Source: a virus | Strand: one strand, 5' to 3' | Virus record (IMG/VR): IMGVR_UViG_3300031221_000001 | Coordinates: 1 to 64,000 of that record | Length of the DNA stretch: 64,000 bases | Position numbers and translations under genes: made by a program | Notes under the pieces: generated by a model | What the model was told of the DNA's origin: nothing | Seen by the model: the letters and a program-made list of their open reading frames with translations, nothing else | The model's database searches: none | In this document: positions 810 through 26,949 of the stretch, piece after piece | Layout of the letters: every line of letters begins with the position of its first letter | How positions within the stretch are numbered: the stretch's first letter is position 1

Positions 810-1237
810 TGAAAAAACTGTTAAACAGACTGTATAAGTGGATGTACAAATTCTCATCAGTCAAATTAGGAATCACAGAAGAGTCTCTAACAAGCACAAC
901 AACCAAAGGTCTACACATCAATCAGTACGCAGTTAGAGTGCATCTAAATGCTCAAGATGCAGGAATCTTGCAATCGGAATCTCTTGGATTTGGACCTTTA
1001 GTAGAGTTAGCAAACCGATGTAGTCCTGCAGAAGCTGTGAGGGAGTGGAAAGATAACGTTCAACAAGTTCATTCAGTAGCATCGGTTGTTGACAGAATGA
1101 ATCGTGAATTTGTTGAAAAACTGACTAGTAGCCATAAAACGATTGCACAGCTAGCAGATTGGGAGATTGAGCAATCGATGATGGGAGAACCTACAGCAGT
1201 AATATATAAACTACTAACAGTCAAACCAAAGAAGTAG
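809..1237 (+). CDS. hypothetical protein
   Basis: 142-aa ORF, translationally coupled (TAATG). Confidence 0.6.
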   Translation: MKKLLNRLYKWMYKFSSVKLGITEESLTSTTTKGLHINQYAVRVHLNAQDAGILQSESLGFGPLVELANRCSPAEAVREWKDNVQQVHSVASVVDRMNREFVEKLTSSHKTIAQLADWEIEQSMMGEPTAVIYKLLTVKPKK

Positions 1238-1238
1238 T

Positions 1239-1697
1239 ATGGCAAAGAAACACGAGTACATAGAAAAGAACGGAAACTTAATTGATATGTTTAGTCAAGG
1301 AGAATTTGATGCAATTGCACACGGATGCAATTGCTTCAATAGAATGGGAGCAGGATTGGCTGCTCAAATTTCAATTAGGTATAGAGAGGCTATGGACGCT
1401 GATAACTTAACGACCTCAGGAGATTTACTTAAACTTGGATCATTGACATTAGCAGCAACAGATGATGGTGTGATATACAATCTTTACACGCAATATCAAG
1501 GAGGAAAGCACTTAGACTACGACGCATTGACGTTATCATTGAGAAAAATGTCAAAAATGATAAAAGGAAAGGACTGGACTATTGGGTTTCCGCAAATTGG
1601 AGCAGGTATTGCTGGAGGCAATTGGAATAAGATTAAAAGAATTATACTGAGAGAGTTTGCTGGCGAAAAAATTGTGTTCGTTTATTTCAAAAAATAA
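1239..1697 (+). CDS. macrodomain (Appr-1-p processing / ADP-ribose hydrolase-like) protein
   Basis: GNLIDM..FDAIAHGCNCFNRMGAGLA, NLYTQ and FPQIGAGIAGGNW motifs. Confidence 0.9.
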   Translation: MAKKHEYIEKNGNLIDMFSQGEFDAIAHGCNCFNRMGAGLAAQISIRYREAMDADNLTTSGDLLKLGSLTLAATDDGVIYNLYTQYQGGKHLDYDALTLSLRKMSKMIKGKDWTIGFPQIGAGIAGGNWNKIKRIILREFAGEKIVFVYFKK

Positions 1698-1710
1698 TAG
1701 GTCCAAAAGG

Positions 1711-1741
1711 TTGCTATAAAGATAACGGTTAGGTATCTTTA
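1711..1741 (+). promoter_or_regulatory. Bacteroidetes-type promoter (TTG-N20-TATCTTTA) with AAAGATA-N9-TATCTTT palindrome
   Basis: Matches Bacteroidetes -33 TTG / -7 TAnnTTTG elements; same layout recurs at several intergenic sites. Confidence 0.75.
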
Positions 1742-1766
1742 TGATATAATCTAAAACATCAATATC

Positions 1767-1958
1767 ATGTACAAGTCAGTATTATTACAATCAGTAGATC
1801 AAGCTAAAGAATTCAAAAAACAATTTTCTAAAGTAAATGATCACAAAACTTTCAGACAAGGAAAAGTGATCAACATCAAACTTGATAAAAATATATCAGA
1901 AAACTTTACAATCATATGTGATGTAAGAGATCAAATAATTCAAACGTTAACAAAATAA
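1767..1958 (+). CDS. small hypothetical protein
   Basis: ORF directly downstream of the promoter. Confidence 0.55.
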   Translation: MYKSVLLQSVDQAKEFKKQFSKVNDHKTFRQGKVINIKLDKNISENFTIICDVRDQIIQTLTK

Positions 1959-1969
1959 AGATAGGTATT

Positions 1970-4183
1970 ATGGAACTTAATCAAACCACATTTAAAGACT
2001 CGGTATTTGGAGCAGAATCGGAAATGAGCTTTTCGATTGACGACAACAATTCAATCATTTTTGACATTCTTAGAGACAAAATGTATTCGAATAAAATAGG
2101 ATCATTATGTAGAGAAGTTGCATCGAATTCAAGAGATGCGAATAGAGAAGCTGGAATGAACGATACTCCAATTGAGATCGAAATAATTAACCCAGATAAA
2201 CTTGCATTTATCAGCGATATGTGTGTAGTTTTTAGAGATTATGGTATAGGAATTACTCCTGATCGTATGATGAATGTGTTCGTTAAGTATGCGTCGTCAA
2301 CTAAGAGAAGTTCAAATGCTCAAACAGGAGGATTTGGCCTTGGAGCTAAGACACCATTTGCATACACTGACACTTTCAGCGTAGTTACTATATGTGACTA
2401 CGAGGGTTCTCGTAAAAAATACACATACACTGCAATGATCGATAGCAGTAGAAAGGGCAAAATGATACTGTTCGATTGTGAAGAAACTGATCAATCTACA
2501 GGAACGCAAATCATTGTTCCAATTCAAGAAAAAGATAGAGGTACATTTGAAAGAGAATGTCTATACAGTACATGTTTGTGGGAAGTACAGCCAAAGATGA
2601 TTAATTTCAATATCAATCAGTACGTGATTGATAAGATAATTGACCAGCCTACTTTCAGTATTGTTAAAGATGATGATGATGAATGCAGACTTGGTGATGA
2701 AGGATATTTCGTTAACATAGATGGGATTTGCTACAAAATTGACAGAGGAGCATTAAAGATTCGAGATCAAGGAATAAATGACGGATACAAGGTGATTGCA
2801 AAGTTTAATGTCGGTGAACTAACTATATCGGCCAATAGAGAAGCTTTGCAGTACGACGAACAGACTAGTGAAAAGATAAAGGCTACTTTCAATGATGCGA
2901 AACATCACTTGTTGGATCTATTGAGTGAGCAAATATCGTCGAGTCAGACTTATTTAGCTGCATGTGAAGCCTTGAGCTCGATAATTGGAAAGCGAGGAAA
3001 CAGTATAGAAGAAGGTAGAGACGATCTTAAAGTAATTTCATCAGCAATTGGAGATCGGCATTCATCAACAATTCTAGGAGAAATAGACAGCGAACAAGTT
3101 AAAAGCAGAATCAAGTGGAACGGAAGATCGTTAACGAATAGATTAGTGCTAAATGCACACTCAATAGCCTATGTTAGAGAGCCTTTAAATGAAAAAGTTA
3201 ATTATGATACATTAACAAACAACCACATAAATCGTTTACTAACAGACTCTCCAATATATTACTTGGACACTAGAAAGAACGTTCGAAGAAACATTACAAT
3301 CTGGAACAATAGACCGAAGAGTCAGAAAGGATTCATATTGATCATTCCTAACAGTAAAGCAACAAGAGATCAATTACTTGATGATGGAATTAAGTTGAGT
3401 GTGGATTATGATATTGATGTCAAAATGTATAGTGACGTTGAGAAAGCAGAAAATAACACAATTAGCGGATCTGCATACACTCCTTCAGAGACAGTAACAA
3501 TAAGAACTCGGACAGACGACTCAGCCTATCTTCACAGAAAGTATGAGTGGAGTACTAGTAGATCAATTGATCTACACAGAGAAAAGATGCAGTTTTGGGA
3601 CGTAAGCAATCAAAAGGCATTAGATGAGAAATTTGCATATTTAGTAGTAGATCAATTGAGCGATACTAGCAGACTAAATACTTCATTAATTAGAGACAAG
3701 ATCAAATTGATTAAATCAATAGATAAAAGAACTGTGGTATTGATCAACAAAACTACACAGAGCAGATACGCAGATAAAATAACCGATTTTGTAGAAGTGT
3801 CAGAAAGAGGAGATCAGTTGATTAAGAAATACAGAAAGCAATTGAATCAAGCGAAGCTTTTCGAGAAGCTAAATGCAATCGTATCTGCAATTCCTGAACT
3901 TATGAGAGAGGAGTTTGTAAAATTATATCCGAAAACTGTTCAAGACTTTGTTCAAAGATCAAGCGAAGGAGAACAACAGGAATTTCCTCTATTAGAGACG
4001 TTAGAGGTTAAATTCGACTTTAAAGGATTGAAAGATAAAATTCAAGCGTCGTTAGACAAGTATCCAATGCTTGAATCTTACGTAGATGCACATTTGAGAG
4101 GGTATCATTGGAGAACGACGCTCCATACGGAAAAGTTGAATCACTCAAAAGTGATAAAAAATTACATTGAGCTTGTAGGATAG
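1970..4183 (+). CDS. rIIA: rIIA-like protein (GHKL/HSP90-type ATPase N-domain)
   Basis: ILRDKMYSNKIGSLCREVASNSRDA, FRDYGIGI, STKRSSNAQTGGFGLGAKTPFAYTD, GELTISANREAL; adjacent to rIIB. Confidence 0.88.
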   Translation: MELNQTTFKDSVFGAESEMSFSIDDNNSIIFDILRDKMYSNKIGSLCREVASNSRDANREAGMNDTPIEIEIINPDKLAFISDMCVVFRDYGIGITPDRMMNVFVKYASSTKRSSNAQTGGFGLGAKTPFAYTDTFSVVTICDYEGSRKKYTYTAMIDSSRKGKMILFDCEETDQSTGTQIIVPIQEKDRGTFERECLYSTCLWEVQPKMINFNINQYVIDKIIDQPTFSIVKDDDDECRLGDEGYFVNIDGICYKIDRGALKIRDQGINDGYKVIAKFNVGELTISANREALQYDEQTSEKIKATFNDAKHHLLDLLSEQISSSQTYLAACEALSSIIGKRGNSIEEGRDDLKVISSAIGDRHSSTILGEIDSEQVKSRIKWNGRSLTNRLVLNAHSIAYVREPLNEKVNYDTLTNNHINRLLTDSPIYYLDTRKNVRRNITIWNNRPKSQKGFILIIPNSKATRDQLLDDGIKLSVDYDIDVKMYSDVEKAENNTISGSAYTPSETVTIRTRTDDSAYLHRKYEWSTSRSIDLHREKMQFWDVSNQKALDEKFAYLVVDQLSDTSRLNTSLIRDKIKLIKSIDKRTVVLINKTTQSRYADKITDFVEVSERGDQLIKKYRKQLNQAKLFEKLNAIVSAIPELMREEFVKLYPKTVQDFVQRSSEGEQQEFPLLETLEVKFDFKGLKDKIQASLDKYPMLESYVDAHLRGYHWRTTLHTEKLNHSKVIKNYIELVG

Positions 4184-4206
4184 AAGATAACATTTAAGTA
4201 TCTTTA
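4176..4206 (+). promoter_or_regulatory. promoter variant (TAG-N20-TATCTTTA; GAAGATA-N9-TATCTTT)
   Basis: Same spacing as the other copies; upstream of rIIB. Confidence 0.5.
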
Positions 4207-4236
4207 AAAAAACAAATTAATTTAAAACACTGTAAA

Positions 4237-5535
4237 ATGAAAATCAAAGGATTGATTAGTGAAAAAACCGTCGTATTGAAGTACGACGGTCAAGAGATCA
4301 ACATACAGAGATCTCAAGATGAAAAAATATTCCTCAAAATCTCTCAATTACTTATTGATGGAAAACAAGAGGAGTTGATTAGTGAATTCTTAGACATAAA
4401 AGCTAAGATCGAAAATTTCAGCGAAAATACTTTCACAGTTAAAGATCAAAAGATAGTATTGAAGGACGATTCAACAGCTATTCCACAAGCAATTGCTAAA
4501 AAATTACTTGAAATGGAAAAAGAGGGTGAAGACTTTCTTCCACTAATTAGGTTTTGGAAAAAACTGAGAAAAAATCCATCTAAAAATTCTAGAGAACAAT
4601 TGTATGGATTTATGCTTGCGAACGATATAGCACTAACTGTGCTAGGAGATATTGTAGTTGAGAAAGGAGTTCGGCAAAAGTATCAAGGACTTCCAGGAGA
4701 GCTAGTTGATTGCCACTCTAGGTCTGTAGACAATAGTGTAGGAATGATTGTTGAAATGCCTAGAGAAAAAGTCAATGACGATCCTGCACAAACGTGTAGT
4801 TATGGACTTCATGTAGGTGCTCCAAAATATGTGAGACAGTGGTATTCTTCCGACATCATTGTCGATTGCATAGTCAATCCAGTAGATATAGTTTCTGTTC
4901 CTAAAGACTACAATAATACAAAGATGAGAGTGTGTAGATATCAAGTGATGGGATATAGCGATAAATCAAGAAATCCCAAAAGGATTGTCAATCTAAATGA
5001 GTTTCTCAAAACTCCTACAGAAGAGGCTAAAAAAACTATAAATACTCAAATCAAAGCTGATAAAGGATCTTCTCACAAAGCAGACAATGACAAAGTCAAG
5101 TCGGTGAAGCAATCTGTTAATGTAGAACAAAATCCTTACATGAATGAAATTGAAGGAAAGACTGCAAAACAGATCATTGAATATGTATTGCAGAAGACAG
5201 GAGTTAATGTTGAGGGAAGTCTAAAGAACAAATCCTCAATAGTAAACAAAGCTGTTAGAATACTTGAACTGAAGGACACCGACTACAAAGATCAAGATGT
5301 GATTCAAGATCAAAAAGCTCTACCATCTAACTGTCATCCAGTCAAGCAAGTCGAAGATCAAGGAAAGTTTGTTGATTTGACCAAGTACAGTAAGGACAAG
5401 AAGCACAGAAAAGAATTGATCGAATTGATTAAATCTAAGTTCAACGAGCAAGTGAGTAAGTTTGCTCCAACTAAGAGTATAGTTAAGAAGGCAAGAGAAT
5501 TATACACTGAAGCAGGGTACGAAGTTAAAGGATAA
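4237..5535 (+). CDS. rIIB: rIIB-like protein
   Basis: FWKKLRKNPS..SREQLYGF, VEMPREKVNDDPAQTCSYGLHVG, VNPVDIVSVPKDYNNTKMRVCRY. Confidence 0.9.
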   Translation: MKIKGLISEKTVVLKYDGQEINIQRSQDEKIFLKISQLLIDGKQEELISEFLDIKAKIENFSENTFTVKDQKIVLKDDSTAIPQAIAKKLLEMEKEGEDFLPLIRFWKKLRKNPSKNSREQLYGFMLANDIALTVLGDIVVEKGVRQKYQGLPGELVDCHSRSVDNSVGMIVEMPREKVNDDPAQTCSYGLHVGAPKYVRQWYSSDIIVDCIVNPVDIVSVPKDYNNTKMRVCRYQVMGYSDKSRNPKRIVNLNEFLKTPTEEAKKTINTQIKADKGSSHKADNDKVKSVKQSVNVEQNPYMNEIEGKTAKQIIEYVLQKTGVNVEGSLKNKSSIVNKAVRILELKDTDYKDQDVIQDQKALPSNCHPVKQVEDQGKFVDLTKYSKDKKHRKELIELIKSKFNEQVSKFAPTKSIVKKARELYTEAGYEVKG

Positions 5536-5543
5536 TAACAACT

Positions 5544-5647
5544 AAGACCGATCTAAAGTCTGATTCCGTGACAAGGATTCTGACCTTGAAGAGAAGATGT
5601 GTTTACAGACGATACATCACATCACACCACATCGGTCTTTCTTTTTC
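5544..5647 (+). other. structured intergenic element (candidate ncRNA or terminator)
   Basis: AAGACCGAT/ATCGGTCTT closing stem, two internal hairpins, followed by a T-tract. Confidence 0.4.
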
Positions 5648-5654
5648 AAAATAC

Positions 5655-6326
5655 ATGAAAGTAACATTACTGTTGGTTAGCGCCAACACATTCGGAGCAG
5701 GCAAAGACACTGCATGTGACTTAATTGCTAAGTCAATCAAACAATCGACTCAATCAAAATCTACAAAAATATTTTGCTATAGATTTGCAGATAAGCTGAA
5801 AGAGTGGGCACAACAAATGACAGGAATCAAAAGAAAGATTCTACCATTTGAACACTACGATGATATAGTTGTAGACTTCACTCAAGAACAAAAAGAACAG
5901 TACTGCACAATGTGGCAAATGACGTTAGGTCAACTATTGCAGAAGTTTGCTACTGAAGCTTGTCGAGACAATTTCGATGAATTGATTTGGTGCAAATGTT
6001 TAGCTCAAGAAATTAACGATCAGATTAGCGACACCAAACAGTATAGTCCTGATTGTGATAGATTAGTGTTTTTAATTCCAGACTTCAGATTCAACAATGA
6101 AGAGCAATTAATAGATTACGTCACAAGCAGTTGTGTAGTCTATCAACAAACTATGAGAATCGAAAGACCATTAACTGAAATATATCATAACACTAGAGAT
6201 GTTAATCACCGATCAGAGACGGAATTGTCTAAAAAAACAAATTGGACACACGAAGTAGATAACAGCAAAGACATATCATTCTTAGAGGATCAGTGCAAGC
6301 AGATAGCTTTAAAAATCTGTAGATGA
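5655..6326 (+). CDS. deoxynucleoside monophosphate kinase
   Basis: GAGKDT P-loop, FADKLKE, LLQKFATEACR, IPDFRFNNE, HRSETEL; start moved from 5568 to the ATG at 5655. Confidence 0.85.
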   Translation: MKVTLLLVSANTFGAGKDTACDLIAKSIKQSTQSKSTKIFCYRFADKLKEWAQQMTGIKRKILPFEHYDDIVVDFTQEQKEQYCTMWQMTLGQLLQKFATEACRDNFDELIWCKCLAQEINDQISDTKQYSPDCDRLVFLIPDFRFNNEEQLIDYVTSSCVVYQQTMRIERPLTEIYHNTRDVNHRSETELSKKTNWTHEVDNSKDISFLEDQCKQIALKICR

Positions 6327-6811
6327 GAGAAATAATCGTATACACAGATGGGAGTGCGAATAATAAAAAGACTGCTAGAGATGGAGGTCTTGGAGTTGTA
6401 ATTCGATACAAAAATGCTAACGGAACTCTATACAAAAAAGACTATTGTGAAGGACAGTTTGTAAACACATCTAGTGCACGAATGGAGATATTGGCTGCAA
6501 TAAGAGCATTGGAGCTGATAAAGCCTACCAGAAAGTATAAAATCAAGATTCATAGCGACAATCAATACGTAGTCAAGACTGTAATGTGTGGATGGTTAGA
6601 AAATTGGCTAGTTACACAACAGAACAAAGCCAATATGGACTTGTGGCACAGATTCAATTCAATCTTCAAATCACATGGAGGATTGCAGAATGTAGAGCTA
6701 ATATGGATTAAAGGACATGCAGGGATTGAGTTAAATGAATTAGCAGATAAGCTAGCAAATCAAGGTAGAAAGAAACAGCAACTAATAACAGATCGTAAAA
6801 ATGAAATATAA
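6323..6811 (+). CDS. rnhA: ribonuclease HI
   Basis: YTDGSA, RMEILAAIRAL, HSDNQYV, WIKGHAGIELNELADKLA. Confidence 0.93.
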   Translation: MREIIVYTDGSANNKKTARDGGLGVVIRYKNANGTLYKKDYCEGQFVNTSSARMEILAAIRALELIKPTRKYKIKIHSDNQYVVKTVMCGWLENWLVTQQNKANMDLWHRFNSIFKSHGGLQNVELIWIKGHAGIELNELADKLANQGRKKQQLITDRKNEI

Positions 6812-8270
6812 GCCAAGCAAATATCAAAGCGATATTTACCGAGAGTTTCAAGACAACAACACAAACATATTAATCTCTGCTGTGGCTGGAAGTGGTAAGA
6901 CATCCACATTATTAGAGCTACTCAAATTGACACACGTACAGACCACTTTTGTTGCATTTAACAAATCAATACAGCAAGAGATAGAGGCTAAGGTAGGTCA
7001 ACAATCCAATGTGGATGTGATGACGATTCACTCATTAGGAATGAAAGCGTTGATGAGACACTTTAGAAGAAAGTTAGAGGTCAAGTCAAATAAGATATGG
7101 GATTTCACTAACAAGTTGAACAAACAGTGGGATATTCCTAAAAACAAATACGTACAGACAGTACTCACCATTCAAAATCTAGTTGACATATACAGGCTGA
7201 CAATGTGTGAAACCGATGATCGTCTCAGAGAAGTTGCAGATGGTTTAGGAATTGATTATACCAACGACGACATTAGATATTCAATGGAAGTTCTAGCTGA
7301 ATATAAAGTATACAATCAAAATCCAGAAGTGATTGATTTTACTGACATGATCTATATTCCAGCAACCAACAAACAAATAGGACTTACAGTAAGACCTAAA
7401 CTTGTATTCATTGATGAGTGTCAAGATCTCAATGCCTGTCAACACGCATTGATTGATAGAATGATAAAGAAAAACCACTCTAGATTTGTTGCTTGTGGAG
7501 ATCCTTACCAATCGATTTACGGATTTGCAGGAGCAGACAGTAACTCTTTTAATCAGTTTCTAGACAAGCCAAACGTAAAACAAATGCCATTGTCAATATG
7601 TTATAGATGTCCGACGAGAGTTGTGGATAAGGCTAATCAAGTACATAACATAATGGAGCCTTTTGAAGGCAATGAGCCTGGAGAAGTTCGTTTAGGAAAG
7701 CAAACAGAAATTCAAGAAGGAGACATGGTTCTTTGTAGAAATGTTAAGCCTTTAGTAAAAGTGTATTTTAATCTACTTGCGCAAGGGAAGAAGGCTTCGA
7801 TTAGAGGGAAGGATTTAGGAAAAGGATTGATTAAATTGGTTAAGCCATTTGAATATCAATCTGTAGGACATTTAATGGCATCTCTATCGTCCAAGCTGAA
7901 TCAAAAGCGACAAGAATTAATTAAAAGAGAGATAGAAAACCCTTCAAACCACCCCTCATACGTCAACTTGCAGGAAAAGATTGAAGTGATCACGTTTGTA
8001 GGTGAACAATTCGAAAGAGCAAGCCAAATTATTGATTTTTTTGAGAAATTATTTCAAGACAATCAAAAGAAAGGAGTAATGTTATCGACTGTTCATAAAT
8101 CAAAAGGGCTAGAAAGTTCCAATGTGTTCTTATTGGACAGACAACTGATTCCTTCAAAATTTGCAAAGACGCCAGATCAAATTAAGCAAGAGCTAAATCT
8201 GATGTATGTGGCAATTACAAGAAGTCAATCAAAACTAATTTTTATACACTCACAACAAAAAAACAAGTAG
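6801..8270 (+). CDS. UvrD/Rep-like SF1 helicase
   Basis: AVAGSGKT, FIDECQD, GDPYQSIYGFAGAD, YRCP, TVHKSKGLE, YVAITRS. Confidence 0.92.
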   Translation: MKYKPSKYQSDIYREFQDNNTNILISAVAGSGKTSTLLELLKLTHVQTTFVAFNKSIQQEIEAKVGQQSNVDVMTIHSLGMKALMRHFRRKLEVKSNKIWDFTNKLNKQWDIPKNKYVQTVLTIQNLVDIYRLTMCETDDRLREVADGLGIDYTNDDIRYSMEVLAEYKVYNQNPEVIDFTDMIYIPATNKQIGLTVRPKLVFIDECQDLNACQHALIDRMIKKNHSRFVACGDPYQSIYGFAGADSNSFNQFLDKPNVKQMPLSICYRCPTRVVDKANQVHNIMEPFEGNEPGEVRLGKQTEIQEGDMVLCRNVKPLVKVYFNLLAQGKKASIRGKDLGKGLIKLVKPFEYQSVGHLMASLSSKLNQKRQELIKREIENPSNHPSYVNLQEKIEVITFVGEQFERASQIIDFFEKLFQDNQKKGVMLSTVHKSKGLESSNVFLLDRQLIPSKFAKTPDQIKQELNLMYVAITRSQSKLIFIHSQQKNK

Positions 8271-8272
8271 TT

Positions 8273-10339
8273 ATGATTAAAAAGTTTAAGTTAAAGCAGC
8301 AATTTATTGACAGCTATCGAACTGCGACACCTCCATTTGGATTCAATGGACTTGGAGAACTGACTTATATGAGAACGTATTCTAGGCTAATTTGTCCAGA
8401 AACAGAGACGTACGACTATACAGTAGATGACCAAGGCAAAAATGTCTCAGACGAATCTGGAAAAGAGATGATCAACGAGCAATGGTTTCAGACAATTAGA
8501 AGAGTAGTTGAAGGAACGTATAACATGCAAAAAAGACACATCACAGAAAACGGACTGGGATGGAGTGAGAAAAAAGCACATAAATCTGCTCAAGAAATGT
8601 ACGATAGAATGTTCACAATGAAATTTCTTCCACCTGGAAGAGGACTGTGGGCAATGGGAACTAATCTTACAGAAGAAAGAGGCCTGTACGCTGCGTTGAA
8701 TAACTGTGCGTTCGTTTCGACAGAAAATATAGGAGCATCTACTGAAGATGCCGTTAAGCCATTCGAATTCTTAATGGACATGAGCATGTTGGGTGTTGGT
8801 GTTGGATTTGACGTTAAGGGAGAAGGTAAAATCAAAATAAACGATCCAGTAAGAGAAGGTATTTTTGTAATTCCGGATACTAGAGAGGGATGGGTAGAGT
8901 CTTTATCAATTATACTAAAAGCATTCTTTACCAAAACCACAGCTTTACCACAAATGGACGTGAGTCTGTTGCGTAAAAAAGGAGCTCCGATAAAAACTTT
9001 TGGAGGAACAGCTTCAGGACCAGGGCCACTACAAATTCTACACGAGCAAGTAATTTCCTTATTTGAAAATAGAGAAGGAGGTGCGATTACACAAACAGAC
9101 ATCGTCGATATTATGAACATGATTGGATGTTGTGTTGTAGCTGGAAATGTTCGAAGAACTGCAGAGATAGTCTTTGGAGATCCTACAAGCGACGAATATT
9201 TATCACTAAAAGATTATCGTTGGAACAGCGAGAAGATGGGATGGGAAGGTAAGAACGTAAGAAGATCTGAATTTGGCTGGACATCAAATAATAGCGTATT
9301 TGCTGAAGTAGGAATGGATTACACTAGAGTTGGAGATCAAACAGCTTTGAACGGAGAGCCTGGATACGCTTGGCTACACAATATGCAAAAATACGGACGA
9401 TTAGTTGATCCTCCTAACTGGAAAGACAGGAAAGCTAAAGGAGGAAATCCTTGTTTAGAACAAACGTTAGAGTCATTTGAACTTTGTTGTTTGGTTGAAA
9501 CATTTCCGACACAATGTGATTCGTTAGAAGATTATTTAAGAACACTGAAGTTTGCGTACCTCTATGCAAAAACAGTAACGTTAGGAAAGACTCATTGGAA
9601 CGAGACCAATAGAGTAATGCTTAGAAATAGAAGAATTGGAACTTCACAAAGTGGAATCGTTCAGTTCATAGAGGCTAATGGAGTTGAGGATTACAGACAG
9701 TGGTGTGATGCTGGATACAAAACCATTCAATCACATGACACTGAATACAGCGATTGGCTATGTATTCCAAAATCAATCAAAACTACATCAGTCAAGCCTA
9801 GCGGAACTGTGTCATTACTTCCAGGAGTAACGCCAGGAATGCACTATCCTGAAGCAAATCATTACATTAGAAGGATTAGAATAAGCGAAGACAGTGCTTT
9901 AGTTCAAAAATGTACAGATGCAGGATATCATGTAGAAAAAGATGTAGTTAGTCAAGGAACTATGGTAGTTTCTGTGCCAATTAGTGTAGAAGGAGTTAGA
10001 ACAGTCAATGAAGTTTCAATGTGGGAACAGTTATCGTTGGCAGCATTAATTCAAGAGTGGTGGGCAGACAATCAAGTATCGTCTACAGTAACGTTTAAGA
10101 AAGAAGAGGCTTCACAGATTAAGCATGCATTGAACTACTTTCAATATAAGCTGAAAGGAGTTAGTTTCTTACCAAAACTAGACATGGGAGATACTACGTA
10201 CGCACAGATGCCATACGAAGAGATCTCCAAAGAGACTTTCGATCAAGAAATCTCTAAAATAGGAACATTAAACTTTTCTGGAGTATCAGAAGATTCGACA
10301 CCAGAAAAATATTGCGATTCAGACAATTGTGAAATTTAA
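8273..10339 (+). CDS. nrdJ: class II (adenosylcobalamin-dependent, monomeric-type) ribonucleotide reductase
   Basis: YMRTYSR, FLPPGRGLW, NNCAF, GNVRRTAEI, NPCLEQ, TSVKPSGTVS, C-terminal CDSDNC. Confidence 0.93.
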   Translation: MIKKFKLKQQFIDSYRTATPPFGFNGLGELTYMRTYSRLICPETETYDYTVDDQGKNVSDESGKEMINEQWFQTIRRVVEGTYNMQKRHITENGLGWSEKKAHKSAQEMYDRMFTMKFLPPGRGLWAMGTNLTEERGLYAALNNCAFVSTENIGASTEDAVKPFEFLMDMSMLGVGVGFDVKGEGKIKINDPVREGIFVIPDTREGWVESLSIILKAFFTKTTALPQMDVSLLRKKGAPIKTFGGTASGPGPLQILHEQVISLFENREGGAITQTDIVDIMNMIGCCVVAGNVRRTAEIVFGDPTSDEYLSLKDYRWNSEKMGWEGKNVRRSEFGWTSNNSVFAEVGMDYTRVGDQTALNGEPGYAWLHNMQKYGRLVDPPNWKDRKAKGGNPCLEQTLESFELCCLVETFPTQCDSLEDYLRTLKFAYLYAKTVTLGKTHWNETNRVMLRNRRIGTSQSGIVQFIEANGVEDYRQWCDAGYKTIQSHDTEYSDWLCIPKSIKTTSVKPSGTVSLLPGVTPGMHYPEANHYIRRIRISEDSALVQKCTDAGYHVEKDVVSQGTMVVSVPISVEGVRTVNEVSMWEQLSLAALIQEWWADNQVSSTVTFKKEEASQIKHALNYFQYKLKGVSFLPKLDMGDTTYAQMPYEEISKETFDQEISKIGTLNFSGVSEDSTPEKYCDSDNCEI

Positions 10340-10363
10340 GTGTGATTAGTTTGTTTGTTTTTT

Positions 10364-10389
10364 AAAAGCCACTCGAAAGTGGCTTTTTT
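10364..10389 (+). terminator. intrinsic terminator
   Basis: AAAAGCCACT-CGAA-AGTGGCTTTT followed by TT. Confidence 0.85.
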
Positions 10390-10447
10390 ATTGGTGTCAA
10401 CCATACTGTTTTTCAGTATATTCATGGTCACATACATAAAAACAAAT

Positions 10448-11968
10448 ATGGGATTGAAATATCAGAAAATCGCAAAAAAACTTTCGTCAAAAATTCAAAA
10501 AGTACATGACGAAAATCCAGGAATAAGTGATAGGAAACTAGCAGTCAAGATAGTAGAGAGGTTCAACCTTGAAGTCACACCAGACTATTTACGAGCAGTG
10601 ATCCGTACATGGAAGGCTTTGGTTCAACAAAATAAAACTGATGAACTAGAAGAGGAATCTAAATCACAGCCTGTAAAAGAAAAAACAGGACTGGAGCTCA
10701 GAGACAATTATGTGATCAATTGGAGTGACAAAACAATGGTCACTGATTTAGGAGTTTTCGGAAGCTATATATGTTCAATTGATCGTCACATGATGATTCA
10801 AAGAAAATATGTATACGATGATGGGAACGAGACAGCAGCGATAGTTGCAATGGAATTTGACTTTGCACATACGAAAGCTGTTTATGTATATGCACGGATT
10901 CACGGATTCTCTAAAGCATCTCCTCCACAAACAGACATCGAATTTGAATTAGGAAAATCTGTAAATGAATCTGTAGAGGAAAATATTCAAACAATCAAGC
11001 GCAATGTGTATAAAAAGACACAGAAGCGTAAATGGAAGGAGACAGTAGATGCTGCAGATAAGTGGTGGAATTTAGAAGACACAGTCATCGAAGCAATCAA
11101 AGCTCTATCATTTGAGCTTCAATCAGAAAACGTCGAGAGCTTACAATTTGTGATTCCAGATTCAGACTATAAATTTGCTGCATTTGTAGGAATAACAGAT
11201 GCGCACTATCTCAAACTGTGCTACAATCACTCAGGAGAGGTTATGTACAATAAAGAGATTGCTAAGAAACGAATTCAAGATCACGTACAGAGATTAGCTA
11301 CAGAGGCTTCGAGATATGGTAGGCCTGAAAGATTTTACGTTACTTGTGGAAATGACAATATTCATGTAGACGGAATGCATCATTCTACCACCAAATTAAC
11401 TCCTCAACATCAAGCTACAGATGGCCTTTGGAGACTAGAATTGAAGAACTATATCAAAATTCAAATTGATTTAATTAACTATTACAAACAGATAGCTCCA
11501 GTAACAGTTCTTCCAGTGAAAGGAAATCACGATTATGAAACTTCAATAGCTGTTCAAGCCTTCATGGAAGTCTATTTCGAAAAGGATCCTTTAGTAGAAG
11601 TGCAAATTTGTCATGACGCAAGAGTGTACATTCAATATCACAAAGTATGTATGATAGCAACTCATGGAGACGAGCTGGGTAGTGTCAAGAACTTAGAAAG
11701 TCAGGCACATAAATTAATTATGGGAGAGGCTAAGGATCAAGGAATTGATGTGATGGAGGTGGAATACTATATACTATTTCATGGACACGAGCATGTTGGA
11801 AGTTCAAGAGATCTCAATGGAAGAGTGCAAAGAATTGGATTATCGTCTTTGTCAGGAATAGACGATTGGTGGCACAAAGAAAAAGGATTTGTTGGAAGAC
11901 AGCCAGAAAGTCAATTGATAATTGTTGATAAAAATACGGGAAGAAAGGCGATATTGTACGTTCAATAA
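10448..11968 (+). CDS. calcineurin-like metallophosphoesterase with N-terminal extension
   Basis: DAH, GND, GNHD, THGD and GHEH motifs; start moved to 10448 because the longer ORF runs through the terminator. Confidence 0.8.
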   Translation: MGLKYQKIAKKLSSKIQKVHDENPGISDRKLAVKIVERFNLEVTPDYLRAVIRTWKALVQQNKTDELEEESKSQPVKEKTGLELRDNYVINWSDKTMVTDLGVFGSYICSIDRHMMIQRKYVYDDGNETAAIVAMEFDFAHTKAVYVYARIHGFSKASPPQTDIEFELGKSVNESVEENIQTIKRNVYKKTQKRKWKETVDAADKWWNLEDTVIEAIKALSFELQSENVESLQFVIPDSDYKFAAFVGITDAHYLKLCYNHSGEVMYNKEIAKKRIQDHVQRLATEASRYGRPERFYVTCGNDNIHVDGMHHSTTKLTPQHQATDGLWRLELKNYIKIQIDLINYYKQIAPVTVLPVKGNHDYETSIAVQAFMEVYFEKDPLVEVQICHDARVYIQYHKVCMIATHGDELGSVKNLESQAHKLIMGEAKDQGIDVMEVEYYILFHGHEHVGSSRDLNGRVQRIGLSSLSGIDDWWHKEKGFVGRQPESQLIIVDKNTGRKAILYVQ

Positions 11969-16615: not shown

Positions 16616-17059
16616 ATGAATCTGATAACAAAGGACATAGAAAAGGCAATTGTTCAGTTCGAACATAGAGCTCCAATAAGATCTTTACGAACTAGTGCGA
16701 TATATCCAAACCACGAATGCGATGCTCTAGTAATTACCAATAGCAATTATGCAGTTGAGTATGAAATAAAGATTTCTAGAGGAGACTTCTTCGCAGACTT
16801 CAAGAAGAAGAAGCATAAATCGATGAGGCGGAATGATGGAGGCAAGATTAGTCGTTTCTACTACGTAATGCCAAAGGACATGGTCTCACTAGACGATATT
16901 CCTCAATATGCTGGACTAATTTACGTTGACAAATCACTGGAGTGCTCAATAATCAAACCAGCACCAAGACTTAGGTGCGAAAAGGTTAGTGATAAGGACA
17001 TAAACCGAGTGTACAGATCAATCATGTTTAGGTGGTTAAAGGATCAGTCAGAAAAATAA
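16616..17059 (+). CDS. PD-(D/E)XK nuclease, MmcB-like
   Basis: ECDALVI...EYEIKISRGDFFADFKK, FYYVMP, YAGLI. Confidence 0.75.
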   Translation: MNLITKDIEKAIVQFEHRAPIRSLRTSAIYPNHECDALVITNSNYAVEYEIKISRGDFFADFKKKKHKSMRRNDGGKISRFYYVMPKDMVSLDDIPQYAGLIYVDKSLECSIIKPAPRLRCEKVSDKDINRVYRSIMFRWLKDQSEK

Positions 17060-17071
17060 TTTCAGTAACGG

Positions 17072-17102
17072 TTGCTTTAAAGATATCTTTAGAGTATCTT
17101 TG
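17072..17102 (+). promoter_or_regulatory. promoter TTG-N20-TATCTTTG upstream of the cassette array
   Basis: Perfect -7 TAnnTTTG; leader TGTCATAAGACA is shared with the 20760 promoter. Confidence 0.8.
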
Positions 17103-17120
17103 TTATGTCATAAGACAATT

Positions 17121-17306
17121 ATGAAAACAATACTATTTTTACAAGGTCGTGGCCCAGACAAATGGACGCCAGCGTGTGACAATCCGAATCCTCCATTTTG
17201 GTGTGATGAACAAGTAGAACCAGGAGCGCCAATTGATCAATATATCTTATGCCTTCTTATTATTGCAGTTCTCCTTGGAATTTATATTATATGGAAAGAT
17301 AAATAA
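17121..17306 (+). CDS. small protein with PID-CTERM-like sorting signal
   Basis: Pro-rich stretch, then APID, a TM helix and KDK. Confidence 0.55.
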   Translation: MKTILFLQGRGPDKWTPACDNPNPPFWCDEQVEPGAPIDQYILCLLIIAVLLGIYIIWKDK

Positions 17307-17309
17307 GTG

Positions 17310-17522
17310 ATGAAGCTAAAAGAATTTAAACAACAAATTGAACAACATTTTATACTGAGAAATTTGACAAGCACTTATGCGAATGCACGGGCACAATTGC
17401 ATTAAATAAAGGCGATAGATTTACAGACAAAAAAAGGTAATGTATATGAAGTTGTTTGGAACTTATTTAATGTAACAGATATGATAATGGTTTATCACGG
17501 TAAATTAATAGTGGGAGCTTAA
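17310..17522 (+). pseudogene. interrupted ORF ending at the first attC-like site
   Basis: 71 codons with an internal TAA at 17403-17405. Confidence 0.45.
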
Positions 17523-17660
17523 TGCACCCTAACGGTTTGTATAAGGTACGTTGCGACCTTGAATTAAGCGACAAAACTAATCAATAAATAGAAATTATGA
17601 GTAAAGAAATAAGTAACCAAAAATATAAAAAGCAATGGACTTTATACGGTATTCTGCAAC
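17523..17660 (+). repeat. attC-like site 1
   Basis: CCCTAAC, arm GTATAAGGTACGTTGC (17539-54) / GCAATGGACTTTATAC (17632-47), degenerate core ATTCTGCAAC. Confidence 0.65.
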
Positions 17661-17815
17661 GTTATTTTTTTATTAGTTGGCATAAATATTGGAAAGGAAT
17701 TTACATTCACTTACCTAGAGTAACGCACCGATTTTACCTTAATAAGCGATGGATATTTAAACACGATAAATATTCAAATGTAGGTTCAAGAATATCACAA
17801 AAATTAGGTGTGTAA
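17597..17815 (+). CDS. cassette ORF A (starts inside site 1)
   Basis: 72 aa; stop abuts site 2. Confidence 0.55.
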   Translation: MSKEISNQKYKKQWTLYGILQRYFFISWHKYWKGIYIHLPRVTHRFYLNKRWIFKHDKYSNVGSRISQKLGV

Positions 17816-17816
17816 T

Positions 17817-17952
17817 GTTGCATAACGTGTTGTATATGGTTTGTAGGCATAGACAAGAGCTAACTTTAGATTAAGCACCTACTTAAAGAATAGAAAATAA
17901 ATATTGAATTATTAACTAAATTGCCTATAAATTATATACTTTGTTAGGCAAC
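17817..17952 (+). repeat. attC-like site 2
   Basis: GTTGCATAAC, arm GTATATGGTTTGTAGGCA (17832-49) / TGCCTATAAATTATATAC (17922-39), core GTTAGGCAAC. Confidence 0.8.
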
Positions 17953-17967
17953 GTAAATTAGATAAAA

Positions 17968-18189
17968 ATGAGTAAAGATAAAATTAACATTACAGCAGAC
18001 CAATTAGAAACCATAGAACATTACCAGCGAATGTTTAGACTTAATTCTGAAACAATACAAGGCTTGTGTAGTGAAGAGCAAGACGATGTTGTCTATGGTT
18101 TTGAATTAGGAAAGATGCACTCACATTTAGAAGAATGCTTTATGGGAATGATGAAGTTAACTGATGAGATTAGGTCTAATAACAGTTAG
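17968..18189 (+). CDS. cassette ORF B
   Basis: 73 aa between sites 2 and 3. Confidence 0.65.
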   Translation: MSKDKINITADQLETIEHYQRMFRLNSETIQGLCSEEQDDVVYGFELGKMHSHLEECFMGMMKLTDEIRSNNS

Positions 18190-18196
18190 GTATTAT

Positions 18197-18338
18197 GTTG
18201 CTTAACGGACGAGTATATGGCAAGTTGCTTATTAATAAATAAAACAAAAACTTTGAATATGATTACAAAATATATAAATACTTGGAGACTTAAAAAATGG
18301 CAAAGTAATTTGCTATATACATTGTTAGGGTTAGTTTA
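18197..18338 (+). repeat. attC-like site 3
   Basis: GTTGCTTAAC, arm GTATATGGCAAGTTGCTT (18213-30) / AAGTAATTTGCTATATAC (18303-20), core GTTAGGG. Confidence 0.8.
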
Positions 18339-18498
18339 CTCTACAAAGATTGTAAAAGGTGACAAAATTAGATGTTATGGAATAGGCTACCCTCATTGGA
18401 AAGGTGAAGAGTTTGAATGTACACTTGACTTTAAAGATGGAACAATAGGTGTAAGAAATGCAGTAAGGGTATCCGAGAAAGATTTTAGGAAACTATAA
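18259..18498 (+). CDS. cassette ORF C (starts inside site 3)
   Basis: Probable start MITKY (alternative 18217); stop overlaps the left end of site 4. Confidence 0.55.
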   Translation: MITKYINTWRLKKWQSNLLYTLLGLVYSTKIVKGDKIRCYGIGYPHWKGEEFECTLDFKDGTIGVRNAVRVSEKDFRKL

Positions 18499-18644
18499 AT
18501 TAACCCTAACGGGATGCAAATAAATAAAGTACGACTATGAAAACACTAAATGACATTTTAACAAAACTCAAATTCGACAAGGAATCAAGCCCAATTGAAG
18601 CACATAATCAAGTATTGGATTTATTTGCTGTTAGTGGCTGGCTC
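18496..18644 (+). repeat. attC-like site 4
   Basis: TAACCCTAAC, arm GCAAATAAAT (18516-25) / ATTTATTTGC (18619-28), core GTTAGTGG. Confidence 0.7.
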
Positions 18645-18779
18645 GAATTTGAAGGTAACGAATCAATCTTTAATGAATATGCAAAACGCAATTGTCTTTG
18701 TAAATTCGATGATGGAACTGAATGCAGGTATGAGGATGAACACCCAATAGCATTACTCACTCACTTTAGATGTAAGTAG
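18537..18779 (+). CDS. cassette ORF D (starts inside site 4)
   Basis: 80 aa; stop abuts the half site GAGCTTGCTACTAAC. Confidence 0.6.
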   Translation: MKTLNDILTKLKFDKESSPIEAHNQVLDLFAVSGWLEFEGNESIFNEYAKRNCLCKFDDGTECRYEDEHPIALLTHFRCK

Positions 18780-18971
18780 AGCTTGCTACTAACAAAACCA
18801 TGAATGAAATTGATAAATTACTAAAAAGCTCAAGCAAGATCAAAATATCCTATTGGAGAACTTCAGGGAAGAGGTTTTAAGAATCCAATCAGGACAGCAA
18901 ACAATCGACGTAAGTAACGTGGAGAAAGAAGGATTTGTAATTACTGCATCAGCGGGATCATTTGCATTCGT

Positions 18972-19187
18972 ATGATAAGAATTTACAAGAAGACTCAAGT
19001 CAGTCACACACATAGCGCTTATTTAATGGTCAACGATAAGAATGGTCAAGCAATCGAATCACTATGTACTGAAGATGAGATCGAAAAGTTGAAGAATATT
19101 CTACCATGCACTGAAGTTAGTGAGAGACCAAACAACTTTACCAAACTACCAAAATCAGAAGAAGAGGAATTTTTCATAAACGCATAA
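18972..19187 (+). CDS. hypothetical protein
   Basis: ORF. Confidence 0.5.
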   Translation: MIRIYKKTQVSHTHSAYLMVNDKNGQAIESLCTEDEIEKLKNILPCTEVSERPNNFTKLPKSEEEEFFINA

Positions 19188-20759: not shown

Positions 20760-20790
20760 TTGCTTAAAAGATATAGATAAGGTATCTTTG
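20760..20790 (+). promoter_or_regulatory. promoter TTG-N20-TATCTTTG
   Basis: Motif copy with perfect palindrome. Confidence 0.8.
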
Positions 20791-20826
20791 CTGTGTCATA
20801 AGACAGTAACCATAAAAGACCGTAAA

Positions 20827-26104: not shown

Positions 26105-26457
26105 GGGGGCGACTGGTTTTGACTGGTACGTAGTAAATAATGTTCAGCCGTTGTAGTCAACGTAAAAACGTGGTGAATTTCTTTAAATGGAAACACAGAT
26201 ATGACAGCAGGAGAGACTGCACAAGTAGAAGCTAATATGAACGTAGTACACAATCTCGTGAATAACAGTAACGAAATTGCCGAATACAAATTAGCAGCAT
26301 AAAAGTACTCTGAGTGTAACTAGCTCAGATGGTGGATTGTTGGAAGACTCGTCTTTCGACCCTATTGTGACGACAATTCAAACACGTAGCAAGCTGTGCT
26401 AAAAACATTATTTATAAAATGCTTGGGACGGGAGTTCGAATCTCCCCGCCTCCACAA
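26105..26457 (+). ncRNA. ssrA: tmRNA
   Basis: 5' GGGGGCGACTGGTTTTGAC; 3' GGACGGGAGTTCGAATCTCCCCGCCTCCA; G3.U acceptor pair; internal frame ending YKLAA-stop. Confidence 0.93.
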
Positions 26458-26805: not shown

Positions 26806-26878
26806 TGTCCTGTGGTGTAATTGGTAACTCTTCTGGTTTTGGTCCAGAAGAGTCTAGGTTCGAGCCCTAGTAGGATAA
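26806..26878 (+). tRNA. tRNA-Gln(TTG)
   Basis: TGTCCTG/TAGGATA acceptor, TCTGG-TTTTGGT-CCAGA anticodon arm, CTAGG-TTCGAGC-CCTAG T arm; one D-stem mismatch; CCA not encoded. Confidence 0.9.
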
Positions 26879-26949
26879 CAAATAACAAATCATAGTAGAT
26901 GGGTGGTAATTTTTTAGGATATTTACATCCATATCAAATTATTATTATT

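Follow-up and report, generated by a model that had tools for sequence, protein, structure and literature searches.

In bacterial integrons, the recombination site follows the gene of each cassette, and the match of the feet across the gene is the argument by which cassette boundaries have classically been defined. The sites of sedentary chromosomal integrons of the VCR (Vibrio cholerae repeat) type are homogeneous and measure about 123–126 nucleotides (nt). In shufflons and invertible tail-fibre segments (R64 Rci/sfx, Mu Gin), the C-termini of proteins are swapped by inversion at one locus, with a dedicated recombinase adjacent. Rickettsia palindromic elements and REPINs are dispersed palindromes of about 100–150 nt, which can be read in frame within proteins. 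Clusters of attC sites lacking an integrase (CALINs) have already been published for virulent phages, including Polaribacter phage P12002L (Qi et al. 2023, PMC9892861), and mini-circles serve as vehicles for the promoter early stem-loops (PeSLs) of T4-type phages (PMC2839356, PMC4122927). Here we analyse the first 64 kb (positions 1–64,000, hereafter the window) of the IMG/VR viral record IMGVR_UViG_3300031221_000001, a 95-kb record that is 92% complete. At 17.5–18.8 kb, the window contains four small open reading frames (ORFs A–D) with four imperfect hairpins (W1–W4) between them. These hairpins are probably integron-type cassette sites, in which the gene is inverted relative to the site and the site encodes the start codon and the N-terminus of the protein.

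The + strand carries every gene of the window, to which the hairpin and ORF coordinates below refer, and the nucleotide matches of the window are found in Flavobacteriia phages (Cellulophaga phage phi18:1 and Tenacibaculum phage PTm1). The hairpins share one layout, with the left foot YTAAC directly 3' of the preceding stop codon and the right foot GTTAG about 120 nt further on. The left boxes of sites 1–4 are CCCTAAC, GCATAAC, GCTTAAC, and CCCTAAC. The right boxes of sites 2–4 are GTTAGGC, GTTAGGG, and GTTAGTG, whereas that of site 1 is degenerate (ATTCTGC). Hence the inverted core boxes RYYYAAC...GTTRRRY that characterize attC sites are present at the ends of the imperfect palindromes in the window.

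Hairpin 1 (17526–17665) begins with the left foot ACCCTAAC (17526–17533, with TAAC at 17530–17533) and has the degenerate right foot ATT at 17651. Homologues of this hairpin are found in PTm1 (75%) and in the loci L021 and L091. The start of ORF A (17597–17815, 72 amino acids (aa)) is located in its loop together with residues 1–18, and the right arm encodes residues 15–22. Hairpin 2 (17815–17955, TAAC at 17823–17826 and GTTAGGC at 17943–17949) is wholly intergenic and folds with −36.5 kcal/mol, compared with −28.3 for the minus strand. ORF B (17968–18189, 73 aa) starts 25 nt past its right foot. Hairpin 3 (18197–18339, TAAC at 18203–18206 and GTTAGGG at 18324–18330) possesses an 18-bp stem with three G.T pairs and folds with −26.4 kcal/mol on the + strand and −12.3 kcal/mol on the − strand; its loop contains the start of ORF C (18259–18498, 79 aa). 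Hairpin 4 (18503–18640, TAAC at 18507–18510 and GTTAGTGG at 18630–18637) contains the start of ORF D (18537–18779, 80 aa), in which V32 corresponds to the GTT of the right foot at 18630. The left arm of hairpin 4 is conserved in six other contigs (L008–L013) and partly in a further one (L003).

The sequence and the ORF list confirm two points of an initial annotation of this DNA. ORFs A, C, and D start in a loop and are translated through the right arm, giving the peptides LYGILQR, LYTLLGLV, and LFAVSGW, and the core triplet coincides with one codon in A (I19) and D (V32) but spans codons 22/23 in C. The three ORFs are real, conserved genes. ORF A has 12 homologue clusters of the same length, and this family breaks after residue 20–22. 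ORF C has 36 clusters, most of them 77–83 aa long and starting at the Met of 18259, which is the true start rather than 18217; gp30 of phage phi18:1 is 87% identical and annotated from the same Met. ORF D has 22 clusters of the same length. Its loop codons differ from those of the homologous locus L011 by seven synonymous and two non-synonymous changes, mostly at third positions. The conservation of the ORFs and this purifying selection on loop codons agree with the proposal that the starts lie in the loops and the first 18–31 residues are hairpin-encoded. In addition, no in-frame ATG, GTG, or TTG is present close behind the right arm of ORFs A, C, and D. True starts downstream of the GTT therefore appear unlikely. 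For none of ORFs A–D was a function obtained from Pfam, PHROGs, or the protein atlas.

The hairpins resemble integron attC sites in their conserved AAC/GTT feet (RYYYAAC/GTTRRRY-like), an asymmetric internal loop forming an unpaired spacer, a long imperfect stem, a variable loop, and the presence of one site per gene. At each of the four sites, the fold of lowest free energy is the long-range stem. Compared with shuffled sequence, the z-scores are −4.2 for site 2, −2.0 for site 3, −1.1 for site 4, and +0.8 for site 1, so that only sites 2 and 3 stand out by energy alone, and the reality of the hairpins rests on the family to which they belong. This family was searched for with an exact two-arm pattern, fixing parts of both arms, in IMG/VR contigs and in 401 Bacteroidota genomes.

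In viruses, the pattern occurs at no fewer than 130 sites, distributed over at least 120 IMG/VR contigs, with lengths that peak sharply at 122–125 nt. The foot boxes RYYYAAC/GTTRRRY also recur in 130 viral copies, where the pattern itself imposes them. Phage P12002L contains at least ten hairpins of the same architecture, and others are found in PTm1 and, with a short loop, in phi18:1. The annotated starts of P12002L gp37, gp41, gp57, and gp60 are located in loops, and that of gp42 is located in a left arm. At 50 of the 130 viral sites, an ATG-initiated ORF of at least 40 aa starts inside the hairpin and runs through the right arm. Among the 87 sites with enough flanking sequence, the next gene starts inside the hairpin in 29 and within 40 nt past the foot in 38 (together 77%), and the latter arrangement, adopted by ORF B with its start 0–40 nt past the foot, is the commonest in the family. 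The flanks are coding on the hairpin strand in 74% versus 16%. The GTT is read in the three phases in 20, 10, and 20 of the 50 embedded ORFs; an early impression that it is nearly always in codon phase 0 (seven of eight examples) was dropped with this larger set. Compensatory changes are seen between site 3 and L007 (T-A to A-T plus an inserted pair), between site 3 and L004, and in L013 (GTTAGCGGC/GCCGCTAAC). Rfam covariance models give no match at E ≤ 1 in 17000–19000, nor for the hairpins of ten bacterial loci. On the minus strand of P12002L, gp41 (50 aa, 32695–32494) and gp57 (44 aa, 39710–39518) lie almost wholly inside a long-loop hairpin, starting in the loop and stopping at or just past the right foot.

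The pattern also occurs in 36 of the 401 Bacteroidota genomes, compared with one for a backwards control pattern. In all 15 bacterial loci examined, the pattern lies on the strand opposite to the coding strand of its neighbours, as in canonical integrons, and these neighbouring genes are cassette-like (LinB-like nucleotidyltransferase, Fic, and beta-lactamase family). One genome (G021) encodes a full-length integron integrase (429 bits), with two hairpin copies at distances of about 4.7 and 6.4 kb. Moreover, an Xer/IntI-like recombinase is located within 5 kb of a hairpin in 8 of the 36 genomes, which we estimate to be far above chance for one or two such genes per genome of about 3.5 Mb. Two genomes (G180 and G252) share a recurring unit of Xer/IntI-like recombinase, LinB-like nucleotidyltransferase, and 123-nt hairpin (L142 and L143), possibly a small mobile element with the hairpin as its attachment site. 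In two others (G086 and G341; L158 and L159), an Xer/IntI-like recombinase lies 0.8–1.8 kb from the hairpin. A group II intron domain (RF01999) was observed 1.4 kb from another bacterial copy (L139, 3062–3123); group IIC introns are known to target attC sites.

The boundaries of the moving unit are best seen around ORF D. Its complete mobile unit (18507–18793) is composed of the left foot, the hairpin, the gene, and a terminal box GCTACTAAC (18785–18793). The unit recurs with 87–99.7% identity over 286–296 nt in L008–L011 and L013, and over 275 nt, ended by the contig end, in L012. Besides this unit, nothing in the six contigs matches the present genome, and the flanking genes differ on both sides. 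The identity begins at TAAC/GG and ends at CTAAC/ (the slash marks the break). Seven different genes precede the ORF D hairpin. At the right end, five of seven joints share only 3–5 bases, with unrelated non-hairpin DNA beyond. ORF C likewise keeps its hairpin and gene together in L004, and its body is followed downstream by three different hairpins (in the window, L004, and phi18:1). In phi18:1, L006, and L015, the left arm before ORF C is absent, and the right foot and terminal box are decayed. In phi18:1, gp30 is inserted between duplications of about 65 nt of the 3' end of a VRR-NUC gene (2434–2500 and 2886–2955 of L001), which looks like the footprint of its entry.

The same linkage is found across the family. 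The 133 hairpins compared give 108 pairs with similar loops, of which 99 share neither flank, six belong to the same genome, three share the downstream gene only, and none shares the upstream flank only; the loop DNA is 85–98% identical between copies without flank similarity. Where copies are aligned, their identity ends at the feet, in TAAC and GTTA. The moving unit is thus the hairpin plus its downstream gene, and every cassette comprises a whole gene, start included. The initial annotation had assigned the start codon and N-terminus to the previous cassette, a view that fails for ORF D, whose left arm, start, and N-terminus accompany it in six contigs that are otherwise unrelated. Nor do the data bear out its idea that reordering creates fusion proteins or switches genes by frame, given the absence of pairs sharing the upstream flank only and of a single reading phase. 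Since the hairpin always travels with the downstream gene, the gene-moving crossover is placed in the left foot and the + strand is taken as the attC bottom strand, an assignment in agreement with the strand that folds.

Assembled contigs from salt-lake metagenomes that hold this phage were compared with the window. They branch at 17531 (in the AAC of site 1), at 17946 (in the GTTA of site 2), and at 18788 (in the box after ORF D), and contigs of other genomes diverge directly past the GTTA at 17946.

The feet themselves carry a further cassette signature. In the window, P12002L, and the ORF D loci, 6.9 of 10 positions of the right foot beyond the triplet agree with the following left foot, compared with 3.3 of 10 for its own partner (p = 1e-5). 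Among 63 viral hairpins, 43 have a partner that matches at least seven of nine positions and abuts AAC, whereas the upstream control gives none; in the 23 hairpins with a match of eight of nine, the partner is located 87–522 nt downstream. The terminal box of ORF D is complementary to the internal right foot (8–9 of 9) and covaries with it in L013. As in integron cassettes, the foot is therefore a hybrid, its outer part corresponding to the opposite end of its own cassette; this suggests that crossovers take place within the triplet and that a circular or excised form exists. This complementarity across the gene fits either orientation of the site.

The sharing of N-terminal modules among unrelated bodies is NEVERTHELESS real. 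In the ORF D family, nine clusters have an N-terminal identity of 7–28% and a body identity of 80–94%, with the best split after residues 24–31. The 36-residue N-module of ORF D (68–89% identical to that of the window) occurs on three unrelated bodies (clusters P0057, P0058, and P0071), which break right after V32 of the GTT codon (after V or VS), and clusters P0053, P0055, and P0056 break before the V of this codon. The expectation that similarity breaks at the junction with unrelated N-termini is thus borne out in part: some breaks fall exactly at the GTT, and others up to about eight residues upstream. In the ORF C family, eight clusters have a different N-module. One and the same body is thereby found with several N-modules. 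The N-modules form discrete classes (Fisher p down to 1e-14). At the DNA level, PTm1 and L021 carry the site-1 hairpin and its N-module on other bodies, and PTm1 diverges from the window exactly at GGT/GTT. The second gene of L008 shares its N-module with P0060 (14 of 25 residues identical by BLASTP, 13 of the first 17 by eye) and diverges past HVV.

Across the viral contigs, 38 of 41 pairs with similar N-modules have unrelated bodies. A single N-module, with 20 of 21 residues identical, stands before four bodies, including a C-5 methylase and an N6/N4 methylase, and the Pfam domain of the C-5 methylase begins at residue 28, at profile position 2. In some cases, the loop is conserved at the DNA level but its ATG is not (L091 and PTm1). 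A scan of the viral contigs with the alignment of the ORF D N-module gave no match, and neither did tblastn of P0058 and P0071 against the phage records.

In the arrangement we propose, the four hairpins would belong to a widespread attC-type site family of about 123 nt in Bacteroidota and their phages, and the + (sense) strand, which folds in the phage, would be equivalent to the bottom strand of integrons. The gene-moving crossover would take place in the left foot (..TAA/C), and a cassette would extend from one left foot to the next, containing the hairpin, leader, start codon, N-terminal codons, right arm, body, and terminal box. The phage cassette would then be the mirror image of the bacterial integron cassette. 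In such a layout the site overlaps the 5' end of the ORF, so that the loop and right arm are translated, and because one hairpin family sits on many unrelated genes, unrelated proteins share hairpin-encoded N-termini. A rarer exchange in or near the right arm would replace the hairpin before a body and swap the N-terminus in frame, with some junctions at the GTT; such right-foot junctions may represent events on the other strand. The exchange itself would be site-specific, acting on folded single strands, and a host IntI or Xer-like tyrosine recombinase may carry it out.

This arrangement shares features with several known systems. One homogeneous site family on unrelated genes is reminiscent of the VCR-type sites. 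The phage sites differ from integron cassettes in that the gene is inverted relative to the site, the site is located 5' of the gene, and the sense strand folds, whereas the site is 3' of the ORF and the sense strand is the top strand at the 15 bacterial loci. In contrast to attC sites, the phage sites contain a leader, a start codon, and 17–32 codons, and their extended foot comprises 12–13 nt (AAYT-N5-YAAC) rather than 7. Shufflons also exchange protein ends in frame through site-specific recombination sites inside coding sequence, but here the N-termini differ between genomes, there is no inversion, and no enzyme is adjacent. Rickettsia palindromic elements and REPINs can likewise be read through in frame, but neither the cross-gene flank signature nor the coupling of each hairpin to the gene downstream matches them. 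Like CALINs, the hairpins form arrays without an integrase in virulent phages, and one P12002L member has already been predicted to be an attC site (PMC9892861). The T4-type PeSLs resemble them as stem-loops between small accessory ORFs in plastic regions, marking the joints of modular shuffling (PMC2839356, PMC4122927). In contrast to PeSLs, the right arms do not fit TTG-N19-21-TAnnTTTG, so that the combination of promoter and terminator is missing; the joints lie at feet of 3–5 nt and not inside a homologous motif of 40–60 bp; and the gene start is located in the loop, with the family also present in bacterial chromosomes.

Several observations weigh against integron-type exchange. The phage (95 kb, 92% complete) encodes no tyrosine or serine recombinase, Y1 transposase, GIY-YIG, or HNH protein. 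PF00589 has no match in the 95-kb phage, which thus shows no IntI with an attI beside the array as in complete integrons, and the Y1 HUH transposase profile PF01797 has none either, giving no sign of IS200/IS605 or REP/RAYT membership. Four of five related phages are also without a tyrosine recombinase. At the genome level, bona fide IntI is not enriched in bacteria (12 of 36 hairpin-positive genomes compared with 11 of 36 controls). The only member of the family tested at the bench, the short-loop P12002L_attC1 (30059–30005), did not recombine with IntI1 (PMC9892861). The folds show no clear extrahelical bases, and sense-strand folding with many G.U pairs fits a role in mRNA equally well. As to the N-modules, the last few residues are similar by construction, since the pattern fixes parts of both arms; the junctions of P0057, P0058, and P0071 are seen at the protein level only; and several swaps (L003, P0047–P0052) break about 17 nt upstream of the GTT and not at it.

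Two further observations concern recombinases. Record G002 encodes a 277-aa Xer/IntI-like tyrosine recombinase (L018, 1177–2010; NF040815 136 bits, TIGR02249 96 bits) without the IntI-specific insertion, 1.7 kb from an ORF C cassette; it was rejected as a candidate, there being no hairpins beside it. Full-length integron integrases above the NCBIfam cut-off are present in 23 of 72 sampled Bacteroidota species genomes, a share that is reportedly far lower in complete RefSeq genomes.

The main rival explanation is an mRNA element that acts as a linker, in which the hairpins would be a 5' stabiliser, processing site, or terminator, and ordinary homologous or relaxed phage recombination would use them only as shared, PeSL-like linkers. 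We consider this unlikely, though it accounts for a good part of the data. With RNA parameters, 25 of 26 hairpins fold more stably as the sense strand, the mean difference being about 7 kcal/mol, and with DNA parameters 24 of 26 do so. This asymmetry, which also counts in favour of the proposed cassettes, arises from G.T mismatches and the asymmetric internal loop. The hairpins occupy gaps between co-oriented genes, at gene starts, and the short forms are terminator-like (in phi18:1, and with T-tracts in bacterial copies). The phage without a recombinase and the inertness of P12002L_attC1 to IntI1 agree with such a role, and PeSL-mediated shuffling with mini-circles is documented (PMC2839356). 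However, an mRNA element leaves unexplained why the complement of a right foot is found beyond the gene, in the next left foot, why joints of the ORF D unit with 3–5 shared bases lead into unrelated non-hairpin DNA (five of seven right ends), and why the bacterial copies are antisense. In addition, no promoter is found in the arms. A single-strand promoter of the Frpo type was rejected, as the folding strand is the sense strand and not the template.

A second possibility is a palindromic element of about 123 nt resembling miniature inverted-repeat transposable elements, mobilised by a transposase in trans and sometimes fusing its own ATG to genes. Its discrete, tightly sized copies, and the 99 of 108 similar pairs with unrelated flanks on both sides, would suit such an element. 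It is nevertheless improbable: target-site duplications are absent, the two sequences flanking an element are unrelated to each other while the flanks across the gene are related, no transposase was found in the phage, and the loops are very diverse. Still less probable is that nothing special is involved, and that small phage proteins merely have fast-diverging N-termini with breaks at domain boundaries. The N-terminal decay of the ORF A family does look gradual, and in ORFs C and D a common pattern persists in some of the alternative N-modules. This account is already contradicted by N-modules that are 70–95% identical on unrelated bodies, including two methyltransferase classes, by the discrete module classes, and by loop DNA that stays nearly identical without flank similarity. 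Finally, the geometry of the initial annotation, canonical, + being the top strand, with the crossover confined to G/TT in the right arm and the N-terminus taken from the upstream cassette, is very improbable despite the breaks adjoining the GTT codon in six clusters (P0053, P0055–P0058, and P0071), the divergence of PTm1 and a foot complementarity that fits it too, for it is already contradicted by the linkage (no loop-similar pair with the upstream flank only among 108, three hairpins behind the ORF C body, and seven genes before the ORF D hairpin) and by the better folding of + than of −.

The array is closely preceded by a promoter of the Bacteroidota type (TTG-N20-TATCTTTG, 17077–17107, + strand), which drives into it. 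A second copy is present at 20761–20804, and both copies are followed by GTCATAAGAC. The segment 17066–17102 was considered as a fifth hairpin and rejected, as it corresponds to the promoter and not to a hairpin of the family. A membrane-like ORF of 61 aa (17121–17306) shows raised depth (about 90–160 in the region 17105–17306) and a divergent allele in the salt-lake metagenomes, whose contigs also break at 17111 near this ORF. Directly 3' of the ORF D unit, the depth of metagenome contigs at 18790–18900 reaches about 1,000–11,000, compared with about 8 for the phage, and the segment is probably another widely shared module. A +A variant behind 18822 is common in these contigs, and compared with the majority form, the small ORF that the window has at 18801 may carry a frameshift. 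The window also carries a phage-borne tmRNA (26105–26455, tag AEYKLAA according to ARAGORN) and a tRNA-Gln (26806–26879).

Taken further, our analysis raises the tentative possibility that Bacteroidota phages have a population of inverted-gene cassettes of their own, in which the site is the 5' end of the gene and would allow captured start-less fragments to be expressed, second-foot exchanges would swap N-termini, and a host or unrecognised recombinase would act on the sense strand. The finding bears on the movement of accessory ORFan genes between unrelated phages, as seen in the 287-bp gene unit that is 99.7% identical in a foreign genome, on how the cassettes and sites of integrons arise and are exchanged, a question still open, and on the origin of chimeric small proteins. 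A simple way to express captured DNA would be a recombination site that provides the start of translation. The bacterial version, with the site after the gene, and the phage version, with the site before it, form a natural experiment on strand choice, for which culturable systems exist in Polaribacter phage P12002L, Cellulophaga phage phi18:1, and Tenacibaculum phage PTm1.

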